Part shown: positions 12,158 through 57,498 of the stretch, one piece after another
Position numbering within the stretch: the stretch's first letter is position 1
How the letters are laid out: the number at the start of each line of letters is the position of its first letter
Source: an uncultured Clostridia bacterium
GTDB lineage: Bacteria > Bacillota > Clostridia > Christensenellales > UBA1242
DNA: 64,000 bases
NCBI GenBank assembly: GCA_944384415.1
Contig: CALWTF010000010.1
Coordinates: 1,990-65,989 of the forward strand
Reading direction: 5' to 3'
The notes under the pieces: generated by a model
The model's database searches: none
The model's input: only the letters and a program-made list of their open reading frames with translations
Told to the model about the DNA's origin: nothing
Translations under genes and position numbers: made by a program

Positions 12158-13292
12158 AAATAATTTTTTTCAAAGAATTGGTAAAGCCAAAGTTATCATA
12201 GAAGGAGTTAATTTTGACCGCCTGTTAAATGATATAGTTACAAGACAAATAAAAATTATTGAAGTTGCAAGACAAAATAACATTTTAATTTTAACAATAA
12301 GTTGTTCTTTTCTTGCTCAACTGATTGCCTTACTTAAAGAAAAATGTTATACTTTTACTATTCAAAAACAATCTGGAATAGCAAATTTTTTTGATGTTTT
12401 TATAACAAGATGGGGTTTATTTTTAGGCTTTTTAATTTCGGTTTTGGTGTTTGGTTTTGCTAGTTGTTTTGTTTGGGGAATAGTGGTTGAAAATGATGAA
12501 GCGCAACTTCAACAAACATTTAATAAAATTTTAGCTGAAAATAATTTGGGTGTTGGTGTTTTACGATTTAATCAATCCAGTTATGAAATTGAACAATGTT
12601 TGCTTGATAACATTCCTGAATTAAGTTTAGTTTCTGCAAGTTTTAAAGGAACTAATATAATTGTTAATTATACTTTACAAACTGAAAAAGAAGAAATGTT
12701 AGAACAACAAAAAAAAGTTAACATTGTTGCAACCAATGATGGAATAGTAACTAGCATTTCTGTTACAAGCGGAACCGCATTAGTTAAAGTTGGTGATGTG
12801 GTAAAAAAGGGACAAATTTTAATTGCAGGTTATAAAATAGTAGAAGAAGAACAGGTTGAATGTGTTGCTTCTGGAACTGTTTATGCAAATGTTTTTAAAA
12901 GCGCAACAATTCAATTTCCTTTAAAAACTATACAGTGGGTTAGAACAGGTAATTTTTTAACAGGAACTGAAATTAAATTATTTAACAAAACAATTTCAAA
13001 TAATCAACCTGATGTAGATTTTGAACATTATGAAACCATTATTACTTATGAAAAATATAACTTATTAATACCACTTGAATTTTATGTTACAAGATATTAT
13101 GAAGTTGAAAGTGTTGAAATTGAACAAGATTTTGAAAGTTCAAAAGAAAGCATAATTGCACAATCTAGATTGTTAGCACTTGAACAATGTAGTGCTGTGG
13201 ATAATATCATTGATGAAAGTTATGATGTAAATTTTGTTAGTGATGTTTGGTTTGTTACTTATAATATAAAAATAAAGGAAAAAATAAGTTGA
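12147..13292 (+). CDS. yqfD: Stage IV sporulation protein YqfD homologue
   Basis: N-terminus AKVIIEGVNFDRLLNDI, then a central TM (WGLFLGFLISVLVFGFASCFVWGIVV) and the C-terminal domain typical of YqfD. I prefer the TTG start at 12147 (AAAGGAAG SD 6 nt upstream); the track starts at GTG 12129. Confidence 0.75.
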   Translation: MSVKNNFFQRIGKAKVIIEGVNFDRLLNDIVTRQIKIIEVARQNNILILTISCSFLAQLIALLKEKCYTFTIQKQSGIANFFDVFITRWGLFLGFLISVLVFGFASCFVWGIVVENDEAQLQQTFNKILAENNLGVGVLRFNQSSYEIEQCLLDNIPELSLVSASFKGTNIIVNYTLQTEKEEMLEQQKKVNIVATNDGIVTSISVTSGTALVKVGDVVKKGQILIAGYKIVEEEQVECVASGTVYANVFKSATIQFPLKTIQWVRTGNFLTGTEIKLFNKTISNNQPDVDFEHYETIITYEKYNLLIPLEFYVTRYYEVESVEIEQDFESSKESIIAQSRLLALEQCSAVDNIIDESYDVNFVSDVWFVTYNIKIKEKIS

Positions 13293-13786
13293 AAGTAAAA
13301 ATTACTGTAAAAAATGAAGTTGAAAAAGTTTTGCCTGAAAGCAAAATTTTAACTAAAATTGCTAAATTAGTGTTAAAAGAATGTAATCAAAACAAAGCTA
13401 AAATTTCGGTAACTGTTTTTTATGTTGATGAAAATAATATTCAAAAAATAAACAAACAATACAGAAATAAAGATAAACCAACAGATGTAATTTCTTTTAG
13501 AATGGTTGATAACCCAAATTTTTTAGAATTAATAAAAAAGAATTTTCCAGTTGAGTTTGATCCAGCAAGTAAAACAATATATTTAGGAGAAATTTTTATT
13601 TGCCAGGAAGTGGCAAAAAAACAAGCTAGTGAATGGGGAAATAGTGAGCAACGAGAAATTGTTGAATTGTTTTGTCATGGTATGTTGCATATTTTAGGTT
13701 ATGACCACGAAAAAGAAGATGAAATGCTTGTAATGCGTGAACTTGAGCATAATATTTGTGCCAAACTTGATAAATTTGTTTATTAA
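13289..13786 (+). CDS. ybeY: Endoribonuclease YbeY (rRNA maturation)
   Basis: Metal motif HGMLHILGYDHE. TTG start overlaps the yqfD stop by 4 nt. Confidence 0.9.
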   Translation: MKVKITVKNEVEKVLPESKILTKIAKLVLKECNQNKAKISVTVFYVDENNIQKINKQYRNKDKPTDVISFRMVDNPNFLELIKKNFPVEFDPASKTIYLGEIFICQEVAKKQASEWGNSEQREIVELFCHGMLHILGYDHEKEDEMLVMRELEHNICAKLDKFVY

Positions 13787-13797
13787 AGGGGAATTTT

Positions 13798-14190
13798 ATG
13801 GAAGAGGAAGCAATAAATAGATTGATTGAAAAAGCAAAGCAATTTTCATATAATTCATATTGTCCTTATTCACAAATTCCGATTGGTGCTTGTGTTTTAA
13901 CTTCAAATGGTATGGTCTATGGTGGTTGCAATATTGAAAATGTTGCTTTTGAATGTTCATCGGGAGCGGTTGAAGTTGCTGTTCAAAAAGCTGTAAGTGA
14001 AGGTAATTGCGAGTTAAAATTAATAGCGATTTACAGTGAAAGCGAAATGCCTTGTCCTTCTGGAAAAGAAAGACAGTTGATTAAAGAATTTTCATCAAAA
14101 GCTTTAATTGTTTGTGCAAACGCAAAAAATATTCAACAATACACTATTCAAGAATTGTTACCATTTGCAAAAGAAAAAGATGAAATTTAA
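13798..14190 (+). CDS. Cytidine deaminase-like protein with degenerate zinc/catalytic motifs
   Basis: Colinear with homotetrameric Cdd (YCPYSQIPIGA...YGGCNIEN...KAVSEG), but the CAE motif reads GAV and PCxxC reads PCPSGKE. It occupies the position cdd holds in B. subtilis. Confidence 0.7.
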   Translation: MEEEAINRLIEKAKQFSYNSYCPYSQIPIGACVLTSNGMVYGGCNIENVAFECSSGAVEVAVQKAVSEGNCELKLIAIYSESEMPCPSGKERQLIKEFSSKALIVCANAKNIQQYTIQELLPFAKEKDEI

Positions 14191-14292
14191 GTTGCAAAAA
14201 AATTGATAAAAAGTTTTATTTTATTAGTTTTTATTCATTTATATGTGTAAAATTATAAAAAGAACAAAAAATATACAAAAAGAGGTAAAGTT

Positions 14293-15186
14293 ATGAGTTT
14301 TCGTTCTGGTTTTGTTGCTGTTGTAGGACAGCCTAATGTTGGTAAGTCAACTTTAATTAATGTTTTAGTTGGAAAAAAGATTTCCATTGTTTCACCTAAA
14401 CCACAAACAACCCGAGATAAAATTATGGGTGTTCTTTCGGATAAAAACCATCAAGTGGTTTTTGTTGATACTCCTGGTATTCATAAATCTAAAAACAGTT
14501 TAGATAGATATATGAAAAAAAATATCGAAAATGCAACCAAAGATGTTGATGTTATTTTATATGTAATGGATGGTTCTCGTGAATTAAGTGAAGAAGATTT
14601 AAATTGTTTAAAAGATTATTGTAAGGGTAAAACTCCTGTTTTTGCTGTTGTTAACAAAATTGACCTTAGTTCAAAAGAAGATTTATTTAGAAGAATTTCA
14701 GTTTTGAATGATATAAATGTTGAACAAGTTTTTTGTATTTCTGCACTTGAAAAAAGAAACCTTGAACCTTTAGCTAAGGCAATTTTATCTAAACTTACTG
14801 ATAATGTTAAATATTTCCCTGATGACCAATTAACTGATAAAACTCACGGTTTTATTGTGGCTGAGTTAATACGAGAAAAAATATTATGGTTAATTGATGA
14901 TGAGGTTCCTCATGGCGTTGGTGTTGTTATTGATAACATAACTGAAAATCCAGAAATTGAACAAATTACCGCAACAATTTATTGTGAAAAAGAAAGTCAT
15001 AAATATATTTTGATAGGTGCGCAAGGTTCAAAAATAAAAGAAATTGGACAATCAAGCAGAATGGCATTAGAGAAAATGATTGGGAAAAAAGTTCACCTTG
15101 CTTTGTGGGTAAAAGTTAAATCAAATTGGCGTAATCGTGTTGGTGCTTTGGGTGAAATAGGTTATGCTATAACTGATGATAAATAA
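14293..15186 (+). CDS. era: GTPase Era
   Basis: G1 GQPNVGKST, G3 DTPG, G4 NKID, and a C-terminal KH domain (IYCEKESHKYILIGAQGSKIKEIG). Confidence 0.95.
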   Translation: MSFRSGFVAVVGQPNVGKSTLINVLVGKKISIVSPKPQTTRDKIMGVLSDKNHQVVFVDTPGIHKSKNSLDRYMKKNIENATKDVDVILYVMDGSRELSEEDLNCLKDYCKGKTPVFAVVNKIDLSSKEDLFRRISVLNDINVEQVFCISALEKRNLEPLAKAILSKLTDNVKYFPDDQLTDKTHGFIVAELIREKILWLIDDEVPHGVGVVIDNITENPEIEQITATIYCEKESHKYILIGAQGSKIKEIGQSSRMALEKMIGKKVHLALWVKVKSNWRNRVGALGEIGYAITDDK

Positions 15187-15228: not shown

Positions 15229-15417
15229 ATGAAAAAAACAAAACAAATATGGCAAAAATATTTGGAAGATTTGTGTTGGAATAATTTTTGTGAAAGCGGA
15301 AGTATAGGGGATTATTTGCTATATTCAAAAATAAAACGAGAAAAACAAAATGAGCGAAAGTTTAGAGATTATAACAAATGCAATAGTATTAAAAACTGTG
15401 AATTACCAAGAAAATGA
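15229..15417 (+). CDS. YqzL-family small protein (putative)
   Basis: The core CWNNFCESGSIGDYLLYSKIK resembles the YqzL motif (W..F..TG.I..YLLYK). It lies between era and recO, as yqzL does in B. subtilis. ATG at 15229 follows GAGGTG. The 3' end overlaps recO by 68 nt. Confidence 0.5.
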   Translation: MKKTKQIWQKYLEDLCWNNFCESGSIGDYLLYSKIKREKQNERKFRDYNKCNSIKNCELPRK

Positions 15418-16078
15418 TAAAATTTTAACATTATTTTCGGTTGATTTGGGTAAAATAACGGCAGGTTTAAAAGGTTGTAGAAAACAAAATGCTAAATTAA
15501 AATTTGCTGGACAACCATTTGTGTTTGGCGAGTTTAAATTGATAAAAAAAGGTGATAAATATACTGTTGCAACAGTTTCTGAAATTGAAAGTTTTTTTGA
15601 TATTTGTCAGAACTGGGATTTATTAAAAATTGGCAGTGCAATGTTAGAAATAAGCAATATTGTTTTAAACGAGGGAGAACCTTTTCCTAATTTGTTTGTT
15701 ACGCTTTTAAAATGTTTAAAACAAATAGCTTTTGAAACAAATGTTGCAAAAGCGGTTTTTATTAAATTTGTGCTAGAAATTTTTTCAGGCACAGGATATG
15801 AAATGCAATTTGATAAATGTTGTCAATGTGGTGGGGCTTTTAATACTCATATTATTTTGGATTTTGATTTAGGCAATTTAGTGTGTGGTTTATGTAAGGG
15901 CAATAATTGTTTGGAAATACAACCTGCCAACTATTATGTTTTAAAACTTATTTCGAAAACTCCATTTGACAGATTATCAAGCATTAAATTTAATGATAAA
16001 ATTTTTTATGAATTAGTAGATGCTTTAATTAGTAATTTCGAGTTCAGATTTGGTAAAAAATTAAAAAGTTTGAGTTAA
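15350..16078 (+). CDS. recO: DNA repair protein RecO
   Basis: OB-fold N-terminus NAIVLKTVNYQENDKILTLFS and zinc finger CCQCGG...CGLCKG. Confidence 0.85.
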   Translation: MSESLEIITNAIVLKTVNYQENDKILTLFSVDLGKITAGLKGCRKQNAKLKFAGQPFVFGEFKLIKKGDKYTVATVSEIESFFDICQNWDLLKIGSAMLEISNIVLNEGEPFPNLFVTLLKCLKQIAFETNVAKAVFIKFVLEIFSGTGYEMQFDKCCQCGGAFNTHIILDFDLGNLVCGLCKGNNCLEIQPANYYVLKLISKTPFDRLSSIKFNDKIFYELVDALISNFEFRFGKKLKSLS

Positions 16079-16092
16079 TTCAAACTTTTTTT
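16066..16092 (+). terminator. Rho-independent terminator
   Basis: AAGTTTGA-GTTAAT-TCAAACTT followed by a T run. Overlaps the recO stop. Confidence 0.6.
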
Positions 16093-16175
16093 ATTATAAA
16101 AAAGGAAAATCTGTTATAAAAGGCATATAACAATAATAACACACAAATGATAACAATATAAATAAAGGGTTTTTA

Positions 16176-17963
16176 ATGGCGGATAAAGGATTTTCTCCCG
16201 ATTGGTTGGGTGAGTTGAAATCAAGAAACGACATAGTTTCAACTATCAGTCGTTACATAAAATTAGATAGAAAAGGCAAGAACCATTGGGGTTGTTGTCC
16301 ATTTCATTTTGAAAAAACTCCAAGTTTTTCTGTTAATGAAGTTGACCAGTTTTATCATTGTTTTGGTTGTGGCGTTTCAGGTGATGTTATTTCATTTATT
16401 GAAAAATATGAAAATGTTGAATTTTATGATGCTGTAAAAATATTGGCAAAAAATGCTGGAATGGAAATTCCAAATTTTGTTCAATCTGAAGAAATTGCAA
16501 AAAGAAAAGAAGAAAAGGAACAGGCTTTACACGCTTTGTTAGATGCTGCAATTTTTTATAGGCAAATTTTGTTTTCATCTAAAGGGAAACCAGCAATGAA
16601 TTATCTTTTAAAGCGTGGAGTAAATTCTAAAAGCATTGCTACTTTTGGGTTGGGATATAGCCCAGATTTTGAAAGTTTGAAAAACTTTTTAGAGAGTAAA
16701 GGATATTCAATTGATTTATTAAAAAAAGCTGGACTTGTTGATATAAATAATGGACGAGCTTACGATTCTTTTGGTGGTAGACTTATGTTTCCTTTGATAA
16801 ATATGCAGGGTGAAGTTGTTGGTTTTTCTGGTAGATTAATTGAAAATAAAGATTTTGCAAAATATAAAAATAGTTCTCAAAACATTGTGTTTGATAAAAG
16901 TAGAACGGTTTTTGGAATTAATTTAGCTAAAAAGTTAAGAAATGAACTTAGAAACGATTTACAAAATGTTATTTTAGTTGAAGGTCAACTTGATGTGGTG
17001 TCTATGCATCAAGCTGGCTATAAAAACACTGTTGCTTGTTTAGGAACTGCGCTTACTCCACAACATTGCAAAGAATTGGAAAAACTTACTAATAATGTAA
17101 TTGTAATGCTAGATGGTGATGAGGCAGGTAAAAAAGCAACATTGCGTAGTTTGGAAGTGTTGGCTTCTAGCAGTAACTTATCTGTAAAAGTTGTTTCATT
17201 GCCAGAAGGTTGTGACCCAGATGAGTTTATTAAAAAGTATGGAAAGGAAAAAATGGACAACCTTCTATCAAGTGCTATTGAGTCGTTAGATTATCAAATA
17301 AAATCGTTGGCAGAATTATATAATCTAGATAGTAATGAACAGCGTTCAAAATTTATAAAGCAAGCTTTAATAAAAATAAATAAACTAAGTGACAGTTCAA
17401 CAAGGGAAATATATTTAGGTTTAATAAGAAAATTAACAAATGTGCCAGTTGATATATTAAGGCAAGATTTGAATAATTTGGAAACAAATTCAGAAGAAAT
17501 TGAAGTAACTCAACCAAAAGAAGAAACGATAAAACTTAATGAAGATGCTTTTGTTTTAGCTGATAAATTTATTTTAGCAAGTTTATTACATCGAAAAAGT
17601 TATGCTAAATTAGATGATTGTAGTGAAATAGAATTTATGGATAATGATTTGAACACATTGTATGAATATATTAAGAATGGAACAAAAGATAAGCCCGCAC
17701 TTGTAAGTGGTGTATTTGATAGAATTGATGTTCAAGAAAATCCATTAGTTTTAGAAATTATAAATTTTTCATTCGGAGAAGAAAATAATGATGAAATTAT
17801 TTGGAAAGATTGTTTAATAAAAAATGAGCAAAGAAAACTTGACAGACAAAAAGATATTTTAGAAAAAGAGTGGAAAAAATCTGATTTAAAAGAACGAATT
17901 GAAATTGGCAGAAAAATGCAAGAAATAGACAAAAGGAGATTTATGCTAAAAAGCAAAAAATAG
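16176..17963 (+). CDS. dnaG: DNA primase
   Basis: Zinc finger CCPFHFEKTPSFSV...CFGCG, RNA polymerase core, Toprim EGQLDV...DGDEAG. Confidence 0.95.
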   Translation: MADKGFSPDWLGELKSRNDIVSTISRYIKLDRKGKNHWGCCPFHFEKTPSFSVNEVDQFYHCFGCGVSGDVISFIEKYENVEFYDAVKILAKNAGMEIPNFVQSEEIAKRKEEKEQALHALLDAAIFYRQILFSSKGKPAMNYLLKRGVNSKSIATFGLGYSPDFESLKNFLESKGYSIDLLKKAGLVDINNGRAYDSFGGRLMFPLINMQGEVVGFSGRLIENKDFAKYKNSSQNIVFDKSRTVFGINLAKKLRNELRNDLQNVILVEGQLDVVSMHQAGYKNTVACLGTALTPQHCKELEKLTNNVIVMLDGDEAGKKATLRSLEVLASSSNLSVKVVSLPEGCDPDEFIKKYGKEKMDNLLSSAIESLDYQIKSLAELYNLDSNEQRSKFIKQALIKINKLSDSSTREIYLGLIRKLTNVPVDILRQDLNNLETNSEEIEVTQPKEETIKLNEDAFVLADKFILASLLHRKSYAKLDDCSEIEFMDNDLNTLYEYIKNGTKDKPALVSGVFDRIDVQENPLVLEIINFSFGEENNDEIIWKDCLIKNEQRKLDRQKDILEKEWKKSDLKERIEIGRKMQEIDKRRFMLKSKK

Positions 17964-17983
17964 TGTTGCTTTAAAGCGAGTTT

Positions 17984-19051
17984 ATGATGATGGATACTAT
18001 TGAACAAGAAATTGAAAAAATAAAACTAATTGCGAAACAAAAAAAATATATTAATGAAGAAGATATTTACTTAAGATTGTTAAAATTTGAACCAACTGCT
18101 TCACAATTAGACGAAATAATGTTAAGCCTTAAAGAATTGGGCATTGAAATTCGCAAAGATGAAATCACTTTAAAAGATGAAGAAATTATGATTGAGTCAT
18201 TAATGAACCAAGCAAACATCAATGACCCAGTTAAAATGTATTTTAAAGACATAGGAAAGGTTGGTTTGCTAAGCCCAGATGAAGAGGTAGAGTTAGGCAA
18301 GCGTATGGCTATGGGTGATGAAGAAGCTAAAAAAAGATTAGTAGAGTGTAATTTGAGGCTGGTAGTTAGCATTGCAAAACGATATGTAGGTAAAACCAAT
18401 ATGAGTTTTTCTGATCTAATTCAAGAAGGAAATATGGGGTTAATTAAAGCGGTTGAGCGTTTTGATTATAGAAGAGGTTTCCACTTTTCCACATATGGTA
18501 CTTGGTGGATAAGACAAGCTATATCTCGAGCAATTGCTGACCAAGCAAGAACCATTCGTATACCTGTTCATATGGTAGAAACCATTAATAAATTAGGAAG
18601 AACTAATCGTCAATTGTGGCAAGAACTTGGACGCGAACCAACTGATTCAGAAATTGCTGAACGCATGGGGATAACTGAAGAAAAAGTTTGTGAAATCAAG
18701 CGAATAGCACTTGAACCAACATCGTTAGAAAGCCCTGCTGGTGAGGAAGGCGACAGTGAAGTTTATGATTTTGTTGTTGATGAAAATGCTAAATCGCCTT
18801 TACAGTCTGTGGAACAAAATGTTTTAAAAGAACAGTTGTTGTCAGTTATTGAAACATTGACACCTCGTGAACAAAAAGTTATACGCCTTAGATATGGTAT
18901 TGATGATTTACATCCAAGAACATTAGAAGAAGTTGGAAAAGAATTTAATGTAACAAGGGAAAGAATAAGGCAAATTGAAGCAAAAGCATTGCGTAAATTA
19001 AAAAATCCAAGTAGAAGTAAAAGACTAAAAGATTTTGTTGATGAATTTTAA
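17984..19051 (+). CDS. sigA: RNA polymerase primary sigma factor (SigA/RpoD), copy 1
   Basis: Region 1.2 [11 protein letters not shown], region 2 [43 protein letters not shown], region 3.0 [13 protein letters not shown], region 4.2 [27 protein letters not shown]. Follows dnaG as in Bacillus. Confidence 0.9.
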
Positions 19052-19074
19052 TATACAAAAGTAAAGGGGAAGGT

Positions 19075-20124
19075 ATGGAAAAAGAAATTGAAAAAATAAA
19101 GCAAATAGCAAAAGAAAAAGGATTTATTTATGAAGAAGATATTTATGCAAGACTGATTTCTTTTGACCCAACTGCTAAACAACTTGAAGATATTATTTCA
19201 CAATTAAAGAAAGATGGGATTGATGTTCGCCAAGAAGAAGAAAACAATGATGATGAAATTGAACTTGAACATATGATTAATCAAGCAAACATCAATGACC
19301 CGATAAAAATGTATTTTAAAGATATTGGCAAAGTTAAAAGGTTGACACCCGATGAGGAAATAGAACTAGCCAAAAAAATTGAACAAGGTGATTTGGTTGC
19401 TAAAAAACAATTTGTTGAGGCTAACTTGCGTTTGGTTGTAAGTATGGCTAAGCGTTATATAGGTAAAAGTAATATGAGTTTTGCCGATTTAATTCAAGAG
19501 GGTAATTTTGGTCTTATGCGTGCTGTTGAAAGGTTTGATTATAGAAGAGGATTTAGATTTTCAACTTATGGAACAACTTGGATTAGACAGGCAATTTCAA
19601 GGGCAATTGCTGACCAATCACGAACAATTAGGTTGCCTGTTCATATGGTTGAAACAATTAATCGTATGAGTCGTATAAAAAAACAACTATGGCACGAGTT
19701 GGGACACGAGCCAACAGATTTTGAATTAGCCGAAAAAATGGGATTAACAGAAGATAAAATATCAGAAATTAAACGAATAGCTCTTGACCCAACCTCGTTA
19801 CAAAGTCCTGCCGGAGAAGATGGTGACAGTGAAGTTTATGATTTTGTTGTTGATGAAGAGGCTAAATCTCCACAACAATCTGTTGAGCAAAATGTGTTGC
19901 GTGAACAATTAATGTTAGTTCTTGAATCATTGACACCTCGTGAACAAAAAGTTTTAAGATTAAGATATGGGCTTGATGATTATCACCCAAGAACACTTGA
20001 AGAGGTGGGAAAAGAATTTGGTGTAACAAGGGAAAGAATAAGGCAAATTGAAGCAAAAGCATTGCGTAAATTAAAAAATCCAAGCAGAAGTAAAAAACTT
20101 GTAGATTTTGCTAGTGAAATTTAA
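19075..20124 (+). CDS. RNA polymerase sigma-70 factor, primary-type paralogue, copy 2
   Basis: Same full domain set as copy 1. Hand count gives 60 mismatches over the approx 281-aa core from region 1.2 onward. Own SD AAAGGGGAAGG. Region 2.3 reads FSTYGTTWIRQ. Confidence 0.9.
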   Translation: MEKEIEKIKQIAKEKGFIYEEDIYARLISFDPTAKQLEDIISQLKKDGIDVRQEEENNDDEIELEHMINQANINDPIKMYFKDIGKVKRLTPDEEIELAKKIEQGDLVAKKQFVEANLRLVVSMAKRYIGKSNMSFADLIQEGNFGLMRAVERFDYRRGFRFSTYGTTWIRQAISRAIADQSRTIRLPVHMVETINRMSRIKKQLWHELGHEPTDFELAEKMGLTEDKISEIKRIALDPTSLQSPAGEDGDSEVYDFVVDEEAKSPQQSVEQNVLREQLMLVLESLTPREQKVLRLRYGLDDYHPRTLEEVGKEFGVTRERIRQIEAKALRKLKNPSRSKKLVDFASEI

Positions 20125-20139
20125 AAATAGAGGTAAGTT

Positions 20140-20814
20140 ATGGAAAAAAGAATGGAAACAATTTTAAAATTTTGTGAGTCAAGGCCAGTAACTGTTGATG
20201 TTGGGTGTGACCACGGTTATATTGGGCTTGCTTTGTTGCAGAATAAAATTACAAACCATTTAATAGCAACTGATATAAGTGAAAAAAGTTTGCAAAAAGC
20301 TGTTGATTTATTTGCAGAACATAATTTGCAAGAGTTTGCAAGTACTAGGGTTGGAGATGGTTTAAGTGTAATAAAAGATGATGAAAAAATTGACCAAGTT
20401 ATAATTGCTGGTATTGGCGGGCTGGAAATTCAACATATAATAAAAGATTTTAAAGGCAGTAAAAAAATTAAAAATTGGGTTTTACAACCAATGAATGAAA
20501 TTCAAAGTTTAAGAGAGTTTTTGAATAGAAATGGTTTCACAATAAAACAAGATGTTGTTGTAAAAGAAGATGAAAAATTTTATCATATATTATCGGTATG
20601 TGCAGGGAAACAGGATTTAACAGAAATTCAAAAATCTTTTGGTGCAAATATTGAAAGTTATAACACGGTTGAATACAAGTTGTGGTTAATTCAAAAATGC
20701 AAAAAAATTGAAGAAATTTTAAAAAATTTACCTAAAAATAATGAAAAAATTAAATATTTTTCAAATTGTTTGAAAAATGCAAACAAAATTAAAGAACAAA
20801 TAAAAGGGGTTTAA
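20140..20814 (+). CDS. trmK: tRNA (adenine22-N1)-methyltransferase TrmK
   Basis: N-terminal VDVGCDHGYIGLALL, IATDI and IIAGIGG motifs typical of TrmK/YqfN. Located downstream of sigA as in B. subtilis. Confidence 0.8.
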   Translation: MEKRMETILKFCESRPVTVDVGCDHGYIGLALLQNKITNHLIATDISEKSLQKAVDLFAEHNLQEFASTRVGDGLSVIKDDEKIDQVIIAGIGGLEIQHIIKDFKGSKKIKNWVLQPMNEIQSLREFLNRNGFTIKQDVVVKEDEKFYHILSVCAGKQDLTEIQKSFGANIESYNTVEYKLWLIQKCKKIEEILKNLPKNNEKIKYFSNCLKNANKIKEQIKGV

Positions 20815-32397: not shown

Positions 32398-33732
32398 ATG
32401 AGGAAAGCAGATGTTGAAAAAGGAGATGTACGGGGTGCATATATTGGTGGTGGCATTTTTGCAATTCTTATTGCTTTGCCACTGACATTTCTGTTTTTGC
32501 CTTATTTTATATATGCTATAACAGGTTTTTTTGTATGGGACCCAGGTCAACTTGGTATTAATTCTTCTATGTTGGAATATGTGCTAAACTTTTTCTGTTA
32601 CTTTTTACCTTTAATTTTATTTTTAATAAGTTTTGTATGTATTTTTATTGCAAGAAGTAAAGGTTCGGTTTTTTTAAAAATTAGTACAGTTTTTTACTTT
32701 TTATATTTTGTATTATATTACACAACAAATCCATTATCAATAATGCTTGGTAGTGATATTAATTCATTGATAAAATCTATACCATATATTAATTATATTG
32801 TGATTGGGTTAGGAACAATATTTGCGTTATTAGGAATTATTTTTGCAGGTATTCAAAAAGGAAATCCTAACAGAGCCTCTTCATTTTTGGTTTTTAGTTC
32901 AATTTTCTGGTTAGTTATGTCGGTTTTAGATGTGGTAATGCCAATGATTTTTTCAAATAATTTTAGTGTTATTGAATATTATTTACCAACAGTTTTGGCT
33001 TTATATGGATTGATGGGTGGAATTTGGATGCTTATTGGTTGTCGCAAGAAAATTGTTATATTGCCTGAGGGTGAAAGAAAAGTTAAAAAGAACGCTAAGG
33101 TTAAAAATGAACAAAACAATAATGATATGGCAAATGGTGGACAACAAATCAATTTGGGTGGGCAACAAATTCCAGTAGGTGGAATGGCTCAACAAAATTT
33201 CAATGCTGTTCCTCAACAATTTAATGGTGCAATGCCACAACAAGGTTTTAATCAACAAGTAATGCAACCTTCACAGGGAAATCCTAATGTTATGCAGAAT
33301 GGAATGGCACCAAATGGTATGCCACAACGCCCAATGCCAAATGTAGCGCCTCAAAATGGTATGCAAACAATGCCAAACGGTATGCCACAGAATGGGCAAA
33401 GAGTTATGCCAAACGGTATGCCACAACGACCAATGCCAAATGCAGTACCTCAAAACGGTATGCGACCAATGCCAAATGGTATGCCTCAGAATGGGCAAAG
33501 GGTAATGCCAAATGGTATGTCACAACGCCCAATGCCAAATATGGCACCTCAAAATGGTATGAGGCCAATGCCAAATGGTATGCATCAGAACGGGCAAAGA
33601 GCTATGCCAAATGGTATGCCTCAGAACGGGCAAAGAGCTATGCCAAATGGTATGCCTCAGAATAATGTGGCTCAAAATAATAACATAAATAATTCTAACA
33701 ACCAAAACAATAATACAAACGGTGGTGCTTAA
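32398..33732 (+). CDS. Polytopic membrane protein with a repetitive Pro/Gln/Asn/Met/Gly-rich C-terminal tail
   Basis: About seven hydrophobic helices in the first approx 215 aa. The rest is a low-complexity tail ending in 33-aa tandem repeats. GAGAGGGAAAT SD upstream. Confidence 0.6.
   Translation: MRKADVEKGDVRGAYIGGGIFAILIALPLTFLFLPYFIYAITGFFVWDPGQLGINSSMLEYVLNFFCYFLPLILFLISFVCIFIARSKGSVFLKISTVFYFLYFVLYYTTNPLSIMLGSDINSLIKSIPYINYIVIGLGTIFALLGIIFAGIQKGNPNRASSFLVFSSIFWLVMSVLDVVMPMIFSNNFSVIEYYLPTVLALYGLMGGIWMLIGCRKKIVILPEGERKVKKNAKVKNEQNNNDMANGGQQINLGGQQIPVGGMAQQNFNAVPQQFNGAMPQQGFNQQVMQPSQGNPNVMQNGMAPNGMPQRPMPNVAPQNGMQTMPNGMPQNGQRVMPNGMPQRPMPNAVPQNGMRPMPNGMPQNGQRVMPNGMSQRPMPNMAPQNGMRPMPNGMHQNGQRAMPNGMPQNGQRAMPNGMPQNNVAQNNNINNSNNQNNNTNGGA
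33313..33663 (+). repeat. Tandem repeat, 99-bp unit x3 plus 36-bp sub-unit copies, in frame within the CDS
   Basis: Units at 33313-33411, 33412-33510 and 33511-33609, each encoding NGMPQRPMPNxxPQNGMxxMPNGMPQNGQRxMP. The 36-bp sub-unit (NGMPQNGQRAMP) then repeats at 33610-33645, with a partial copy after it. Confidence 0.9.
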
Positions 33733-34322: not shown

Positions 34323-35612
34323 TCATTTTTTGGTTAAAGTAATTATATTAATATCACTTTCTTTTAAAAGTGGAGAATGTTCGTTTATCATATTGTGTAA
34401 GTATTCAGCTCGTTCTCGATAACTTAGATTTGTTTGTTTTTCATTTTTGGTTTTTTCCATAAAATTTTTGTAGCCAGGATATTCAATTAAACTTTTTATT
34501 ATATTAACCCTGCTTTTTTCGCCACTTAAATTTGCTTTGTATTGTGTAAGTTTTTCTTCTATTTCTTCCCAATCTTGTGGAAATATATCGTCATTATAAA
34601 TTCCTCTTCCTCCGTACCAAGCTATAGAAACTTTGCTTAACAAATCTTCGTGTCCATTTTCAATTAAAGTGTTTAATGTTGCTACTAAAGACCATATAGG
34701 ATTTTGATATTTAAGCCAAGTTGGCGTTTCTGTTCCATATTGTTTTTCTAATTTTTTTGATATTTGCAAGGTGTGTTCATAAAAAGTGTTCTTTCTAATA
34801 TTTAATGGGAAAAGAACTACATTATCTGCTCCGTATCCACCATTTTCTTGACTTTGTAAAGCTTGTATTACACTTTCGGCACTTGTTTTAATTTGTTCTT
34901 GCTGAGTTAAAAAAGGAAGTGTTGCCATTACATTTAATTCTATATTAATATTTTGATTTTTCATATATTTAATTATTTTTTTATAAGCATTATCATCAAA
35001 TGGTTTAAAAAGCAAGTTGTTTCTTATTTCAGGATTTGCACTTTCAAAACCTAATTCAATAATAAATGTTTCAATTTGTGGGTTAAGTTTTTTAAATGTT
35101 AACAACTTTTGCATAGCATATGAACAATTATAATTTCCTTGTTCATCTAAATCACCAAGTGTTTTTATATGAGTTTCAAATATGAGAGCTTTTATTTCTG
35201 GTTGTTTAACAATTTCATTTATATTTTTAAACAACATATCTAAACAACTACTAGAAAATTCATTTTTATCAAAAATGGAGCCTACTGCATCAAATAAAAG
35301 TGTATCAATGTTTTGACCAAATGCTTTTCTTATTTGTATTTCTTTTATAAATTTTTTCATTTCAAAATCAACATCAGATGGCAAAAGTTCTTTATTACTT
35401 GCACCATATGAACAAAAACTGCATTGACCAAGTTTACAACCAGATGTTATAAAAGATAATTGTGCTAAATGATTAGCAAAATGTGATTTTGCACTATAAT
35501 CTAAATCTGATTTTTCAGATTGTTTGATTTGACGACTTAGTGCATAAAGGTCTGCTAAGATTTCATCATTTGGTAATTGAGTTTGATTTTTAACAAATTT
35601 TTCCCAGCTCAT
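34323..35612 (-). CDS. Radical-SAM-like enzyme with non-canonical CX4CX2C motif (Elp3/TIGR01210-like group), function unknown
   Basis: SFITSGCKLGQCSFCSYGAS near residue 65, then DAVGSIFD, IFETH and ELGFESAN strands consistent with a partial TIM barrel. Assignment is by pattern only. Confidence 0.6.
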   Translation of the reverse strand: MSWEKFVKNQTQLPNDEILADLYALSRQIKQSEKSDLDYSAKSHFANHLAQLSFITSGCKLGQCSFCSYGASNKELLPSDVDFEMKKFIKEIQIRKAFGQNIDTLLFDAVGSIFDKNEFSSSCLDMLFKNINEIVKQPEIKALIFETHIKTLGDLDEQGNYNCSYAMQKLLTFKKLNPQIETFIIELGFESANPEIRNNLLFKPFDDNAYKKIIKYMKNQNINIELNVMATLPFLTQQEQIKTSAESVIQALQSQENGGYGADNVVLFPLNIRKNTFYEHTLQISKKLEKQYGTETPTWLKYQNPIWSLVATLNTLIENGHEDLLSKVSIAWYGGRGIYNDDIFPQDWEEIEEKLTQYKANLSGEKSRVNIIKSLIEYPGYKNFMEKTKNEKQTNLSYRERAEYLHNMINEHSPLLKESDINIITLTKK

Positions 35613-38828: not shown

Positions 38829-39959
38829 ATGGAAAAGAAATCAAAATTTAAAATTTTTTTAAATCAGCTTTTAATAGCAAGTGTGTTATTTGGTACACTT
38901 GTTGGTGCTGGTTTTGCTTCAGGTAAAGAAACTTGGTATTATTTTGCAAGTTTTGGAACTTTTGGTTATTTTTCAATACTTTTGGCTGGAGTAATTTTTT
39001 TCTTATGTGCTTTGTTGTTTTTAAATTTTGGTAAGAAAATGGGTATAAATTCGGTTCAGCATATGAATAAAATAATGTTTGGTAAATTTGCAATAATTGG
39101 CGAAATGGTAATGGTTCTTTCAAATATTATACTTTTGGCTTCTATGTTTGCGGGGGCAAATAGTTTGTTTCAAATTATAGTAACTTCAACTTCCTTTAGG
39201 TTAGCTAGTGTGATTACTGCTATTATTGCATTAGTTATAGTGTGGTTTGGTTTTGGTGGAATAACAAAAGTTAATGTTATTATTGTTCCTTTAATACTTT
39301 CAGTTTTAGCTGTTTGCTTGTTTGCTGGCAGTACGCATATAACTAGTTATGATGCAGTTTCAAATTTTTCTATAATAAACATTGTTGAAAGTGTTGTTTT
39401 TGCTATTTTGTTTATTGCGAGCAATATGTTTTTTGCTGGTTTTATTTTTGCTAGGTTAGGTAAAGATTTTTCAAAATCCGAAATTATAGGTGGAAGTTTT
39501 TTTGGTGCTTTGTTTTTAACTGCATCTTTAGCTTTGATGAGTGTGGTTTTGTTTTTAAATCCTGAATATTGTTCAAGCGATATGCCACTGGTTGCTATTT
39601 CTAACAGCTTAGGACAAGGATTTTCAATTTTTACATTAATAGTAGTTTGGGTTGGTTTAATTACAACAGCAATTGCTTTGCTTTATACAATTAGTAACTG
39701 GCTAAAAAATTATTTTGGCAGTGTTGTTCTTGCCTCAATAACAACAAGTGCTGTTGCTATGTTATTGTCGGGTTTTGGGTTTTCTAATTTTATTGCCTAT
39801 GTTTATCCTATTTTTGGAATAATAGGTATAGTTTATATTGTTGTTGTAGCTAGGGTTTCTATGAAAAAAGAAAATGAAGTTACAATAAAAACTGATTTAG
39901 AAAAACCAATAAAGGTTCAAACAAAAATAAAAACAGTTAAAGCAAAACAAAAAAAATAA
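38829..39959 (+). CDS. YkvI-family polytopic membrane protein (putative transporter)
   Basis: About 11 TM helices. N-terminal GAGFASGKETWYYF resembles the YkvI signature. Translationally coupled to the TPR gene. Confidence 0.65.
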   Translation: MEKKSKFKIFLNQLLIASVLFGTLVGAGFASGKETWYYFASFGTFGYFSILLAGVIFFLCALLFLNFGKKMGINSVQHMNKIMFGKFAIIGEMVMVLSNIILLASMFAGANSLFQIIVTSTSFRLASVITAIIALVIVWFGFGGITKVNVIIVPLILSVLAVCLFAGSTHITSYDAVSNFSIINIVESVVFAILFIASNMFFAGFIFARLGKDFSKSEIIGGSFFGALFLTASLALMSVVLFLNPEYCSSDMPLVAISNSLGQGFSIFTLIVVWVGLITTAIALLYTISNWLKNYFGSVVLASITTSAVAMLLSGFGFSNFIAYVYPIFGIIGIVYIVVVARVSMKKENEVTIKTDLEKPIKVQTKIKTVKAKQKK

Positions 39960-40837: not shown

Positions 40838-43800
40838 ATGGTTAAAAAATTAAATTTATATGTTTTTAGTTTAATATGTATGATATTTGCCGCGTGCATA
40901 TGTTGTTCTGGTGTTTATACTCAAAGTAAAGTTTTTGCAGATAACAATCTTTCTGATGTTTTTTGGGGTGGGCAAGTTACAAATGAATTAGCTGAAAAAG
41001 GGTCAATTGAAAATCCTGCTTCAAGTTTTGACGAAGCAAAATCGTTATTATCAGAAAATGGAACTATATGGATAAATGGCACAGTTTCAATATCTGGAAA
41101 TAATGAGTGGCAGTTGTCATCTGGTCAGATTATTAAAAGATATGATAACTTTACTGGTGTAATGTTTAGCTTGCAGGCATCTTCTTCTTTAACTTTGAGT
41201 AATGTTACTATTGATGGAAATCAAGAATTGCAAAGTGTGGGCTCAATTTTTAAAACAGCTGGTTCAAATATAAATTTAATTTTTAACAGTGGAACTGTTC
41301 TTCAAAATAACTATTCAACAACTCGTGGTGGTGCTGTGTGGTTATCTTCAGCATCAAATTTAACAATAAATGGTGCAATTTTTAAAAATAACACATCTGA
41401 ACAACAAGGTGGTGCTATTTGTTTATCTTATGGTTCGGTTGTTACTTTTAATGAAGGTGTTATACAAAACAATTCCGCAAAATATGGTGGTGCAATTTAT
41501 TGTGATAATGGATTATTAGAAATATATGGTGGTCAGGTAATAAATAATGTTGCAAAATCGTTTACTGATAACACAACTTGTGGCGGTGGTGGCATATATG
41601 CAAGTGCTAGTTTTATTATTGGGGGAAATCCTATAATTGAAAACAATATAACTCAAATTTCAGTTAATGAAAACACTAATTCAGATATTTACATTGTTTT
41701 TGGTAAAAGTATAATGGTTGCAACACCATTGCAAAACACTGTTCCTTATAATGTTTTGGTTTCAAATGATACATCAAGTTTATCAAGCGCAGTTATTTTA
41801 TCACCTTATCAAGATGTTTCAGATGCTTCAATTTATTTTAAGAATTTTAATTTCGTTTCGGATATATACACTTTTAGTGTTGGTGTAGAAGAATTTTCCG
41901 ATTCTGTTTTGGTAAATAAATATGTTACTTTAACTTTTTATTCTGATTTTAATCAAACAAGTAGTTATGTTAAAGATAATGTATCATCAGGGCAATATTT
42001 ACAAATGCCATCTTTAATGTTTAATGTTCCAGGCGGATTTGTTTTTAAGGGGTGGTCTACCAATATTGATGAGTTTGTAGATGTTGAAATTGATGCTCAA
42101 TATTATGTTGATGGTCCACAAACTTTTTATGCGATATATCAAAAAGAAGTTGTATATAATCCAAATGGTGGAACAGGAAATGTAACTGGTGCAAAAACAT
42201 ATGGTTTAAGCTTTGTTTCTAGTAATGGACAAGGTTTTTCAAGAAAAGGATACACATTAGTGGGTTGGGGAACAAGTCCATCAACCACTTCAAGTGATGT
42301 TGAATTTTATGCTTTAGGCAGTGTTATAAATGATTCGGTTTTAATTTCGTATAACTACACATTGTATGCGGTTTGGGAAATTCAAAAACACAATGTTATT
42401 TTTGATTCGTGTGGTGGTCAACCTGTTGAAATGATAAGTGTATCTTTTGGTGCTCAAATTTCTTTACCTTATACATCTAAATTAGGTTATAAATTGGTTG
42501 GTTGGTTTAAACAAAACGACGATGGCAGTTTTTATGATGTTGAATTTGATTTTAATAATGAAACTATGCCTGATGAAAATTTAACTCTTTATGCACGATG
42601 GTTACCATTATTTGAAAATAGCGAAACTTATATTACTGATAAAGTGTTTAAAATAGCAAATGTTGAACAATTAAACAATTTGTCTTTAATTATAAACAAC
42701 GGCGAAAAAGCTTTTAATGGTGTGGAATTAGTTTCTTATAATAATTTAAGTTATCAACTTATCAACAATTTGTCTTTTTCAGAAACAAATGTAAATAATT
42801 TTATTCCTATCGGTAATGCATCAAATTGTTTTTCAGGTGTATTTGATGGAAAATTATATACTATTTCAAATATAAATATTAATAACAATTTTACATATGC
42901 AGGTATATTTGGTGTTTTAAATAATGCAACTATTAAAAATTTAATAATTGAAAACTCGGTTGTATTAGGGGTTAATTCGGTTGGCGGAATTGCTGGTCAA
43001 AGCACTAACTCGTTTATAACAAATTGCGTATTTGTTGGTGAAATTGAAGGCTCTTCATCTAATGGTTTTGGAGTTGGCGGACTTGTTGGTAATGCAAGTT
43101 ATGGAACTATAATAGAAAGTTGTTTTGTTAAAGCTGATATTGAATCAAAAAACAATGCTGGTGGACTTGTTGGTAATTTAGGCAATGCAAAAATTGTTTC
43201 AAGTGTTGCTTTTGGTTCAATTGTTGCAAAAGATAAATGTGGTGGACTTGTTGGTTTCGTAGATAATAATTCAATTTTAGAATATAGTTATTTTACAGGA
43301 AATGTTTGTGATACTTCGTTGTTTTATGGTTCAATAGTTGGTTATAATTTAGGAACAATAAATAATTGTTATTTTACATATGAAACAAGTTATGTTGGCG
43401 GTATTAATAATGTTTCAACTTTTGGACAAGCCGAAGGTGTTAAATTTAATCAATTTTTAAGTTTGGATAATGATGTTTTTGGCGAGGGATTAAGAAATCA
43501 GTGGAACGAACTAGTAAATAATAATGGAATAAAATTTTGGCAAGCTAAAGCGAAATTAGATAATTTTGCATATTTACCAATACCTTGTGGTTTTAATTCA
43601 ATTTTAGATAATTATTTTGCTGTTGAAGTTTGTGTTGTAACCTTTAATTTAAGTAATCAAAGCGAAACAGATACTTGGGTTCAATATGTTAAAAAAGATT
43701 CTTATGCCATTGAGCCAGTAAATAAAACAATTTCAAATGTTAGTTGGTACTATGGTGATAATATTTGGTGTTTTGTTTTAAATAAAGTTACGCAGGATAT

Positions 43801-46800
43801 TACTCTTAATGCTAGCATAACTGAGGGCGTAAGTTATTTTGAAAATGGAAGCGGTACAATAGATGACCCATATCAAATATCCACTTATCAACATTTTGTT
43901 ATGTTTACTAATCTTATCAATAACTTGTCTACATCAAATTTGTTTGTTGATAAATATTATATTTTAACAAATGATATTGATTGTACCGATAAAATAGTTT
44001 TACCTGTTGGAAATTTAAATGTAAAATTTATGGGTGTTTTTGATGGAAACAATCATAAAATTATAAATGCTAATGTTAAAATTACAAATGATTATGCTGG
44101 ATTGTTTGTTTTAAATGGTGGAGTTATAAAAAATGTTATTTTGCAAGATATTATAGTTGATGGTAATAATGTTACGGGTTCAATAGTTGCAGAAAATTTT
44201 GGTATTGTTGAGAATATAAAAACTTTAAAAGTTAAAAATGGGAAAATAACGGGCAACAATTATGTAGGCGGAATTGTTGGTTATAACAGTGGAATAGTTA
44301 AAAACTGTACTAATAATATTGAAGTGGTTTCAAATGGTAATTATGTAGGCGGAATTGTTGGTTGTATGAAACTACAAAGTTCAATTGTTGAAAACTGTAT
44401 AAACTATGCTAATGTTGTTGCTGAAAACTATGTTGCTGGTATTGTTGGATATGCTTATTTTGGTAGTGTGCAAGTGTGTTTTAACAGTGCAGTGATTGAA
44501 GGTAGATATGCAGGTGGAATTGTAGGTTACAGTAATATTTGTGATATTAAATATGCAGTAAATGCTGGACAAATTTTAGGAAGTTCATATTTAGGTGGTT
44601 TAGTTGCGAAATTAAACCAAGGGTCAACGCTTACAACTTCTTATTCTGTTGGGCAAGTTTTAGGTAATGAATATGTTGGAGATTTGGTTGGCTTGTCTGA
44701 TGGAATTATAACATATTGTTATTATGAAAAAAATATTTATTCAGTTGGTGCTGTTAATGGTAAAGATATAACGGAACAAGCAGTGGGGCTTCCTGTTGGA
44801 TTGATGTTAACAAAAACAACTAATTTAGCTGAAGTGTTTGATGTTAATTTTATAAATGCAACTTTAAACGACACCAATGTTTGGATTGCTCAAGAAAATG
44901 TTGATAATAAATGGTATTATCCAATTTTAACTCCGCTTTATTCTCAGTTAATTTTAACTTATTATCAAACTAATTTTATACAAGTTGAACTTAATTATTA
45001 TGCAAATGTAACTCAAACGGAATTAAAACAAAATACTTTGATATTGCCTTTGGGATTATCTGTTTCATATATTTTACCTTATTATTTTGAATTTTTAGGT
45101 ATAGATGCAAACAATGAAAACAGTTTAAGTTGGTATTCTGATAGCACATATGAAAATCCTGTTTTCATTATAGGCTCAACTACTAATGTTCTTTTTGCAG
45201 AATGGCAAATATCTTTTGAAGGTGAAGGTAATGAAAATTCGCCATATTTAATAACCAACAGTTATGATTTGATATTGCTTTCTTCTTTGATTAACAGTGC
45301 TAGTTTAAATCAGTTTTATGCTACAAAAGTTTATAAATTAACTAACAATATTGATTTATCTAATTTTCAATTTACTCCAATTGGTCTTTATCCTTCATTA
45401 CCTTTTAAAGGAGTGTTTTTAGGTAATAACAAAACAATTTCAGGCGTTTATATCAATTTGCCAAATTATAGTAATGTGGGTTTATTTGGTTACACTACAA
45501 ACGCTAAAATAACAAACTTATATTTAACTGATGTTTTTGTTGAAGCATATTCTATTGTTGGTGGATTGATTGGAAAAGCTGATAATTGTGATGTTTTAAA
45601 TTGTGTGATTGAAGTTTCAGTGCAGTGTTATAATGATAATGCTGGTGCATTAATTGGTATGATGTTAAATACTAGAATTAACAGTTGTGCAGGCTTACAG
45701 TCAATGGTTAGTGCACAAAACATTATTGGTGGATTAGTAGGTTTTGCAGATAATTTATCAGAAATTAATAATTGTCAATTCAACGGAATTGTTGATGGTT
45801 TTACTCAGGTTGGTGGTATAGTTGGTTTTGCATCTAAAACAAAAATAAATGCTAGTTATACAGTTGCCATTGTACAAGGTGTTAATGAAGTTGGTGGTAT
45901 AGTTGGTTTATTGTTTAACAACTCAAAAATAACTCAGTGTTTTGTTGTTCAAACAGTAATTGGAGTATCTTATGTTGGTGGTGTTGTTGGTAAGTCAGTA
46001 GAATCTGAAACATATAACTGCTATTTTAACATTGAAAGAAATCCAAATTTAAATGCGGTTAGTATGTTTGATTTAACAAGTAATAATGTTGCCGGCGTAA
46101 GCACCATATTTATGATGACAAAAATGTTTGAAGGAACTTTAACAACTTGGTATTGGCTTAAATCAGATGGAAACAGATTTTATTATCCAACACAACAAAC
46201 TATGCATCAATTAGGTTTTTGGTGTGATGAAGTTGTTCAACTTGAATTTGAAACATACAATGCAAAAATTTATGAATTTACATATCAATTAGGATATGTT
46301 TTAGTTGGTGCTAATTATAATTTTGGTGTTGTTTTAAACACAGATAGAAATTATGATTTATCAACCTTGTTGGTTGGAGTGGTAAAGGGAAATAATTTTA
46401 CAGTTTTAAAATCAAATGAAAATGGTTATTATTCAGTAGAGGTAACCGAACCTTTTAAAATAGTTGTTGCTGTTAGCCCTGTTAAATACAATGTTGTTGT
46501 AAATATTCAAGGTGAAGGTAAATGTGATAAACAAGGTGTTAATACGGTTGAAGATGGTACAAGTTTTGTTTTAAATTTTGTTCCAGCCTACAATAACTAT
46601 GTTAAATCAATTTTAATAAACAACAAATTATTGGAAAATTGGACTAATGAAAGTTGTGAAATTATAGGTATTAATTCAAATTCAATTATAACTGTTGTTT
46701 TTAGTTCGGTTTGGGAAAAACGAGAAATAATACAAGATAATTGTGATGTTACTATTTTAGCAGATGAAATTTATTATGATGCGAAAATAGAAATAACTAA

Positions 46801-50099: not shown

Positions 50100-50197
50100 A
50101 TTATATTTGTGTATTAATTGATTTTTTTTATAAAATTATATAAAATAATAATGTACTGTTTATGTTAATAAAATATTTGTGGAGGGATAAGGTGATA

Positions 50198-56339: not shown

Positions 56340-56451
56340 AACTATAATTGCAAAATATACAAATATCTTTATAATTTATTTAATTGATGAAAATTTGATT
56401 TTATAAAAAAATATGATACAATGTGCTAACTTAATTAGTAAGGGTGAAAAG

Positions 56452-57498
56452 ATGAAAACTTTAGAATTTGATAAAAAATTTTATTCGCGCAGAATAGCAG
56501 AGTTTGAGACAAAAAAATTTCTTTCGCAAGAAGAAATTGAAGAGGTACAATCTATGCTTCAAATTATAACTGTTAATAAAGGGGTTTATCTAAAACAAAC
56601 AGAAGCAATGATTGAAATAGATGCTTTTAATCGTTTGCGAAAATTACTTGCAAATAATGGGGCAGAAGAAAAACCAACATTTACTGAATTTACGCACGAA
56701 GCACCTAATTTTGGTGTGGAAAAATCTTTGGCTGAATTTATGAACGAAATGTATTCTATTAAACCACTAAATGATATTAATAATGAAAAGAAAAATTTAA
56801 TAAATGAAATTTGTGCGTTTACTGATTGGGTAAATAAAAAAGAAGGTACAAAAATTTATTTATTGAGAGATATGTTTTTATCATATTTGCTTCAAAGACA
56901 AGTAAATCAAGATAATACTGCAATTCCATTTTTGTTTGGTAGAAAATTGTTAAAATTTTTGACTAATCAAAATGTTAGTAATGATTTTGATTTTGGTGAA
57001 AGTGATGACGAACAAATTTATTTAGATTTTTTATACACTTTGTTTGACGCCGCAGATTTGTATCCAAATGATTTTGAAAGTTTTTTTAATTATTTAAAAC
57101 CTAGATTTTTGGAAAAATTACAAGCATTACCTGATTATTACCAATTTATTAAAAATGAACTTGCTAAAATTAAAAGTAATAAAATATTGGTTGTTGAAAG
57201 CGGAATTATGGGCACAATGCCTTTAATATTAAAAAGTGTTGATGAACGAGTTGATTTTGTTTTATTTGGTACAAATCCAGCTTTTTATCAATTATATAAA
57301 CATCGTTTGTTTACAAAAGATATAGTTAAACTTATAAATCTTGAGCAATCTGTTTGTCAAAATGAATTATTCGTGTTTTCAAGTGTAAAAGATGGTGAAA
57401 TATATATAAAACAAACTACTGATTTATTTAGGTTGGAAGAAAGCAAAAAAGAGATAGCTAATACACTTGCAACTTATATAAAATTACAGAATAAATAA
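56452..57498 (+). CDS. Hypothetical protein (348 aa)
   Basis: ATG after AAGGGTGA. No motif I can assign. Confidence 0.45.
   Translation: MKTLEFDKKFYSRRIAEFETKKFLSQEEIEEVQSMLQIITVNKGVYLKQTEAMIEIDAFNRLRKLLANNGAEEKPTFTEFTHEAPNFGVEKSLAEFMNEMYSIKPLNDINNEKKNLINEICAFTDWVNKKEGTKIYLLRDMFLSYLLQRQVNQDNTAIPFLFGRKLLKFLTNQNVSNDFDFGESDDEQIYLDFLYTLFDAADLYPNDFESFFNYLKPRFLEKLQALPDYYQFIKNELAKIKSNKILVVESGIMGTMPLILKSVDERVDFVLFGTNPAFYQLYKHRLFTKDIVKLINLEQSVCQNELFVFSSVKDGEIYIKQTTDLFRLEESKKEIANTLATYIKLQNK

Follow-up and report, generated by a model that had tools for sequence, protein, structure and literature searches.

The window analysed here is a stretch of 64,000 nucleotides from the chromosome of an uncultured Clostridia bacterium, with a GC content of ~28%, and it carries two complete sigma-A genes one behind the other. 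Downstream of recO (15350-16078), the primase gene dnaG (16176-17963), recognised by its ORF and by the Pfam DnaG domains of the identical gene on five other contigs (L003 and L164-L167), is the first of a dnaG-sigA-sigA-trmK run. It is followed by sigma-A copy 1 of 355 aa (17984-19051), a spacer of 23 nt (19052-19074), sigma-A copy 2 of 349 aa (19075-20124) and trmK (20140-20814), a conserved 3' neighbour by which the canonical sigA locus is recognised. All of these genes, and the features within them described below, lie on the + strand. The rest of the window is ordinary chromosome, with nusG, secE, ABC transporters, yqfD, ybeY, era, groEL, glycerol-metabolism genes and one tRNA, and there was no further sigma gene among the ~30 larger ORFs that were scanned against Pfam. 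One of the remaining ORFs, of 2194 aa (40838-47422), has GLUG and Listeria-Bacteroides repeat domains and probably encodes a surface protein. Another, of 1394 aa (50162-54346), had zero Pfam matches, and no Pfam match was seen for the ORFs of 360-440 aa at 32398-33732, 34323-35612, 38829-39959 and 56413-57498.

The two sigma-A copies and the W-dyad

End to end, the two copies share 73% identity, and RpoD models are the best matches of both. Copy 1, a conservative protein of the housekeeping type with PRK09210 as its best match, passes the cut-off of TIGR02393 (370.1, cut-off 354), and copy 2, the faster-evolving paralogue, falls narrowly below it (347.7). Both are below the cut-off of 572 set for PRK09210, with scores of 488.9 for copy 1 and 458.2 for copy 2. 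Pfam domains precomputed for a protein identical to copy 2 comprise r1_1 (weak), r1_2, r2, r3 and r4, which is the full 1.1-1.2-2-3-4 architecture, and both copies match solved SigA chains at E = 1e-113, with residues 9-346 of copy 2 covered. Region 2.4 does not differ between the copies and region 4.2 contains a single difference, N to G, so that the promoter-recognition determinants are unchanged in copy 2. The original prediction for this gene had allowed for altered -10/-12 preferences besides altered melting; a changed -12 preference is not indicated, given the identity of region 2.4.

With group 1 sigma factors copy 2 shares its architecture and the dnaG-sigA locus, where it lies as the second sigma gene between dnaG and trmK; it departs from that group in its W-dyad, which reads T168-W169, and in its scores against the RpoD model cut-offs. 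Like a group 2 sigma it has regions 2-4 close to those of group 1 and a bona fide primary-type sigma, copy 1, adjacent to it. The divergent -10 and -35 recognition regions of groups 3 and 4 are absent, regions 2.4 and 4.2 of copy 2 being of the group-1 type. An accessory sigma-A derived from group 1 is the description that fits copy 2 best.

A strong Shine-Dalgarno sequence, AAAGGGGAAGG, lies in the spacer immediately 5' of the ATG of copy 2. Terminator-like sites were not found between 14800 and 22500, and a consensus scan gave 35 promoter-like sites where 39 were expected. The SigH-type motif AGGA-N-GAAT had no match in a scan of 16000-20200, and hence none in or before copy 2. A spacer of 23 nt without a terminator points to co-transcription of the two copies and suggests that they are co-expressed rather than separately controlled. 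Copy 2 probably shares a transcript with dnaG and copy 1 and has a strong ribosome-binding site of its own for translation.

The feature under study lies in region 2.3. Copy 1 has an intact W-dyad, encoded by TGG TGG at 18503-18508 (W174 and W175, the equivalents of W433 and W434). In copy 2 the codons TAT GGA ACA ACT TGG ATT (19567-19584) encode Y G T T W I within the motif FSTYGTTWIRQ; ACT at 19576-19578 puts Thr168 at the W433, or wedge, position, and TGG at 19579-19581 retains the second tryptophan as Trp169, the W434 equivalent. Models of how the transcription bubble is nucleated and held feature W433 of Escherichia coli, W256 of Taq, as a textbook case of a "universally conserved" residue. 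No gap interrupts the region 2.3 motif in the alignment to solved SigA chains, and T168 is therefore the equivalent of this residue. Both the codon positions and the E. coli numbering of the original prediction are thereby borne out.

Reproducibility, rarity and history of the threonine

Five more assemblies of this species, among them NCBI GCA_949289705.1, carry the tandem genes with the ACT codon, and their copy 2 gene departs from the sequence of the window at 1-3 nucleotides. A protein identical to copy 2 also occurs in public assemblies (P0001), and Thr is found in 3/3 members of its 90% protein cluster, the other two being near-identical. In a second species, represented by two separate sequencing runs (L001 and L002), the gene order is recO-dnaG-sigma(WW)-sigma(TW)-trmK and the Thr codon is ACA. 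Artefacts do occur in such data, as the Arg variant P0006 illustrates, a singleton among 12 cluster members of which the other 11 are WW. However, an artefact of sequencing or assembly, or a decaying pseudogene, would have to account for the same ACT in five more assemblies, the Thr in all three cluster members, the ACA of the orthologue in two separate runs, and a frame that is intact, full length, preceded by a strong ribosome-binding site and evolving at an omega of ~0.17 (a rough value); we regard this explanation as refuted for practical purposes. The read error envisaged in the original prediction is thus ruled out, and Thr is conserved in the one orthologue comparison at hand.

At this position, Thr is very rare in sigmas of the primary type. 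In a sample of 150 diverse representatives, all of the 149 that could be parsed have Trp-Trp, and Bae et al. reported Trp in 1002/1002 primary sigmas and a W-dyad universally conserved in housekeeping sigmas (PMC4593229). We also scanned 241 million metagenome records for Y[AG]T-x-WI.QAI[ST]RAIADQ with a non-Trp codon ending in A, C or T, a design that an ACG-encoded Thr would escape. The scan returned 31 contigs, with Tyr in 15, Cys in six, Gly in five, His in two, Arg in one and TGA in two, and 24 of the 31 have a GC content of at most 41%; none of them has Thr, within the limit that the scan is blind to ACG. A query with a 41-aa peptide aimed at Thr variants matched four short fragments. 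Among group-1-type sigmas, Thr has been seen only in the two species that carry copy 2 orthologues. On the two TGA contigs (L134 and L141, 55-58% GC) the sigma-A frame is full length and intact apart from the stop, which falls precisely on the W433 position; an error, a pseudogene and decoding of UGA as Trp are all conceivable.

A scan of GTDB genomes with the pattern FSTYGT?WI[RK]Q listed at least 120 matches, mostly from Spirochaetes, Planctomycetes and Solirubrobacterales. Among the matches listed, the best reach 58-62% identity, so that no close relative of the window is included, and 25 have Leu, one Phe and one, from a Saccharibacteria MAG, Thr at the wedge position. We rejected these Leu, Phe and Thr sigmas as counter-examples to the conservation in primary sigmas, since they are short proteins whose regions 2.4 and 4.2 have diverged, and are therefore alternative sigmas. 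The Gly of FSTYGT, considered as a clade-specific mark, was rejected as well, as the matches listed carry it in other phyla too. A side observation concerns MAGs of Solirubrobacterales/Thermoleophilia with ~70% GC (L009, L012, L016, L021 and L022, and at least 20 other GTDB loci), which encode sigmas of 283-384 aa with FSTYGTLWIRQ and divergent regions 2.4 and 4.2; this Leu-wedge family looks like an order-wide alternative sigma.

The threonine is not the only unusual residue of copy 2. When both copies from both species were aligned with the 150 representatives, which were drawn from 50%-identity clusters, 71 columns were at least 97% conserved. Copy 1 deviates at three of them, by changes that the whole family shares (L-to-F, K-to-R and A431G). 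Copy 2 deviates, in both species, at the same three and at exactly two more, W433T and L110R. The latter is due to AGG at 19339-19341, which puts Arg89 at the L110 position of region 1.2, and it was seen in the two copy 2 orthologues only among 240 parsed sigmas. L110 is among the seven residues listed for the T-7 pocket (PMC7566282). That W433T and L110R are the sole extra deviations points to a targeted reshaping of the surface by which the -10 element is opened and its non-template strand captured. Nor is copy 2 "otherwise housekeeping-like", as the original prediction had it, a second near-invariant residue being changed. A third state specific to copy 2 is I390M in region 2.1 (Met124, ATG at 19444-19446), which occurs in both orthologues and in 0 of the 150 representatives.

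These changes arose in a family (P0001-P0078) that as a whole deviates at fork-junction residues, with R397K, K426H, A431G and F, L or C at Y425; R397 corresponds to R220 of Taq and is reported to be 100% conserved. The whole family also has an insertion of one residue in the Y394-D403 loop, which reads YVGKTNMSF in copy 1 (residues 135-143) and YIGKSNMSF in copy 2 (residues 129-137). One of its subclades has Y394W.

For the four genes of the two species, 29 amino-acid sites group copy 1 with copy 1 and copy 2 with copy 2 and the alternative groupings have 4 and 2, which means that the duplication is older than the split of the two species; the change from W to T, for which the path from TGG to ACN takes two steps or more, is among the shared derived changes of the copy 2 orthologues. 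Copy 1 of the window and that of L001 are 90% identical (dN 0.095), whereas identity between the copy 2 orthologues is 73.5% (dN 0.229), with an omega of ~0.17 that is rough because dS is saturated. Changes unique to one lineage number 3-4 per copy 1 and 26-32 per copy 2. Copy 2 evolves ~2.4 times faster than copy 1, yet purifying selection acts on it. Among single-copy relatives the P0288 cluster is the nearest; it is 84% identical to copy 1 and has dnaG-sigma-trmK without a second sigma; two sites against none hint that the duplication followed the branching of this lineage. So far, the copy 2 type is known from the species of the window and one sister species only.

Loss of the first tryptophan in related lineages

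Among the 120 closest homologues, 20 are without the first Trp. The variants with Cys fall into three separate clades of a neighbour-joining tree, all within the Clostridia family of the window, and in each of these clades the Cys sigma is the sole sigma gene in a yqfD-ybeY-era-recO-dnaG-sigma-trmK locus, the same locus that is occupied in the WW relatives. Examples, with TGC or TGT as the codon, are found at 6001-7062 of L004, 6001-7053 of L006 and 5001-6047 of L160. The Cys proteins P0050, P0271 and P0272 are encoded on contigs of 426-701 kb. One Cys cluster has Cys in 13/13 members. In one of the clades (P0030, P0031, P0034, P0036, P0037, P0042-P0044 and P0050, and thus the gene of L004) W433C is combined with Y425C (RRGCHFSTYGTCWI), so that two aromatic melting residues of region 2.3, eight residues apart, are now Cys. 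A search for covariation found the equivalent of R385 altered in all three Cys clades (K, P and K) and unaltered in the Thr lineage.

Variants with Gly were found on L132, L135, L145, L146 and L156, contigs of 26-33% GC, where sigmas of 463-545 aa occupy the dnaG-sigma-trmK locus. They combine W433G with Y394F and Y425N (AKNF...RGNKFSTYATGWIKQ), and their melting aromatics are strongly eroded. An Arg variant encoded by AGG (P0006, single-copy dnaG-sigma-trmK, L008 1122-2183) was considered as a fifth independent loss and rejected, since the 11 other proteins in its 90% cluster are WW; a mistake in assembly or a rare allele is the probable cause.

One contig of 231 kb and 29% GC (L143, Ga0256404_1000069) carries a tandem pair after dnaG, with FSTYATCWIRQ in the gene at 12621-13862 and FSTYATWWIRQ in that at 13986-14897. 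In sequence this CW and WW pair is an independent parallel to the WW and TW pair of the window, in an unrelated lineage and with the order of the genes reversed.

With Cys or Gly at the primary-sigma locus, the first Trp of the W-dyad is not strictly invariant in the sigmas found there. The Cys sigmas would contradict the invariance described for the W-dyad of primary sigmas, unless a WW sigma is encoded elsewhere in those genomes. As Cys or Gly occurs in the sole dnaG-linked sigma-A, the loss of this Trp appears compatible with a primary-sigma role in AT-rich bacteria, and its effect could be mild. The non-Trp exceptions found at the dnaG-trmK locus are all from AT-rich lineages of the gut or rumen type.

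A proposed role for copy 2 and its relation to known systems

In published work, the wedge nucleates the bubble. The edge-on W-dyad splits the -12/-11 base pairs, whereupon W433 rotates, stacks on -12 and holds the upstream fork (PMC4593229). Sigma-70 with W433A is normal in initial binding and in binding of the single-strand -10 element and still supports transcription, but its isomerisation is 2-3 fold slower at 37 °C, a value obtained with lambda PR, and ~7 fold slower at 25 °C; the corresponding Bacillus subtilis mutant is cold-sensitive (PMC4593229). The order of wedge residues has been given as WW > HW > QR (PMC10216364).

We propose that copy 2 arose by tandem duplication of the housekeeping sigma-A and is functional. 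It should bind core RNA polymerase and the promoters used by copy 1, as the residues for -35, extended -10 and -12 are retained. A Thr at the wedge position would be unable to stack or wedge like Trp, and the Arg in the T-7 pocket should change the capture of T-7. Together, the altered wedge and pocket may result in slower isomerisation to the open complex and in open complexes of lower stability. The holoenzyme with copy 2 would then favour promoters that melt easily, such as those with a near-consensus or extended -10 element or AT-rich discriminators, as well as warmth and negative supercoiling. According to this proposal the cell would have a single promoter specificity in two forms that differ in kinetics, and copy 2 would be a co-expressed isoform of sigma-A with the promoter specificity of copy 1 and weaker nucleation and stability of the bubble; we see the chances that this is correct as evenly balanced. 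The altered melting foreseen in the original prediction agrees with the published data on W433A and on the ranking of wedge residues, although its consequence could be mild in view of the relatives with Cys and Gly.

Several observations favour a copy 2 that melts promoters differently: the targeted pair of W433T and L110R, the specificity regions that have been kept, the purifying selection, the rarity of residues other than Trp, and the independent tandem pair of Cys and WW genes in L143. Others speak against it. Cys is found in the sole dnaG-linked sigma-A of three related clades and Gly elsewhere, so that the loss may cost little at 26-37% GC, and the effect of W433A at 37 °C is just 2-3 fold on lambda PR. 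The conservation of Thr comes from one comparison, between two orthologue species, and co-transcription leaves no obvious route to differential regulation of the copies. The organism, moreover, is uncultured and known here from its genes alone, from which we infer the expression, the melting defect and the promoter partitioning of copy 2. The main rival is near-neutral drift, in which the constraint on W433 is relaxed throughout this family of AT-rich gut Clostridia, copy 2 is in essence redundant and serves for dosage or as a backup, and the Thr has little effect. It draws on the same relatives, with Cys in the single dnaG-linked sigma-A of three clades and in 13/13 members of one cluster, and with the Gly variant in the dnaG-sig-trmK locus of another lineage of 26-33% GC. 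It also fits a family that had already diverged at R397K and the loop insertion, at Y425 (F/L/C), at K426H and at A431G, the GC content of at most 41% in 24/31 non-Trp metagenome contigs, and the mere 2-3 fold effect of W433A at 37 °C. Against drift stands a Thr retained, with ACT and ACA as synonymous codons, in spite of a saturated dS. The one other deviation of copy 2 at a near-invariant site, moreover, belongs with the T-7 pocket and so to the module of the wedge, a pairing not expected from random drift. The duplicate is, furthermore, intact in two species with an omega, roughly estimated, of ~0.17, and a WW copy has been kept beside the variant both here and in the independent pair of L143. 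On balance we find drift a possible but doubtful explanation.

It has also to be considered that copy 2 might act as a competitor or damper, which binds core polymerase and promoters, opens them poorly and thereby lowers or buffers transcription by copy 1 without having a regulon of its own. The conserved core-binding and promoter-recognition regions would allow this, both melting elements are altered, and co-transcription would fix the ratio of copy 1 to copy 2. On the other hand, we did not find a precedent, sigma-70 with W433A still transcribes, and relatives seem to manage with a Cys sigma as the one sigma-A linked to dnaG, so that sigmas lacking the wedge are evidently productive. We hold such a damper to be improbable.

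Beyond copy 2 itself, a broader picture may be drawn, with some reserve. In it the wedge Trp is not obligatory for housekeeping transcription, the sole dnaG-linked sigma-A working with Cys or Gly in several AT-rich Firmicutes of the gut or rumen, and at least two independent tandem pairs, those of the window and of L143, split one specificity into fast-melting and slow-melting holoenzymes, with L110R as a further tuning in the lineage of the window. This picture is tentative, and we lean somewhat against its being right in full. The window in any case offers a natural matched pair of sigma-A genes with and without W433. Together with the Cys and Gly relatives, this pair is a system in which to probe how strongly the wedge contributes in vivo and whether its constraint is relaxed in AT-rich genomes, as well as a possible partitioning of promoters between two principal sigmas by melting kinetics rather than by sequence specificity. 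Annotation pipelines would label both genes RpoD and miss the difference between them.

A close likeness to copy 2 is found in mutants made in the laboratory, W433A of E. coli sigma-70 and the Trp-to-Ala change in B. subtilis sigma-A, where the same residue of a group-1 sigma was replaced by a small non-aromatic one. These mutants bind core and, in the initial step, promoters normally, but they isomerise more slowly, form open complexes of lower stability and are cold-sensitive (PMC4593229). Unlike the engineered W433A, the Thr of copy 2 is natural, fixed, shared by two species, paired with L110R and accompanied by a WW copy directly upstream. Clostridioides difficile, also of the Clostridia, resembles the organism of the window in having a dnaG-linked sigma-A (SigA1) and a second full-length paralogue (SigA2) (PMC7438776). 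Its sigA2, however, is at a separate locus, has its own SigH-dependent promoter and has been assigned to stationary phase (PMC7438776), whereas copy 2 lies in tandem, 23 nt away, and has no SigH-like motif.

Alternative sigmas such as sigma-32, with H107, and the ECF sigmas likewise have a residue other than Trp at the W433 position, and in the literature such a wedge goes with poorer melting and greater stringency towards promoters (PMC10216364, PMC4593229). They differ from copy 2 in their -10 and -35 recognition residues and in a wedge that is usually bulky, copy 2 having regions 2.4 and 4.2 of group 1 and a small polar Thr. In the Cys-wedge and Gly-wedge sigma-A proteins of related AT-rich Firmicutes, as in copy 2, a full-length group-1-type sigma at the dnaG-trmK locus has lost its first Trp naturally. 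Unlike copy 2, however, these sigmas are single-copy at the locus, have Cys or Gly instead of Thr, and have kept L110.
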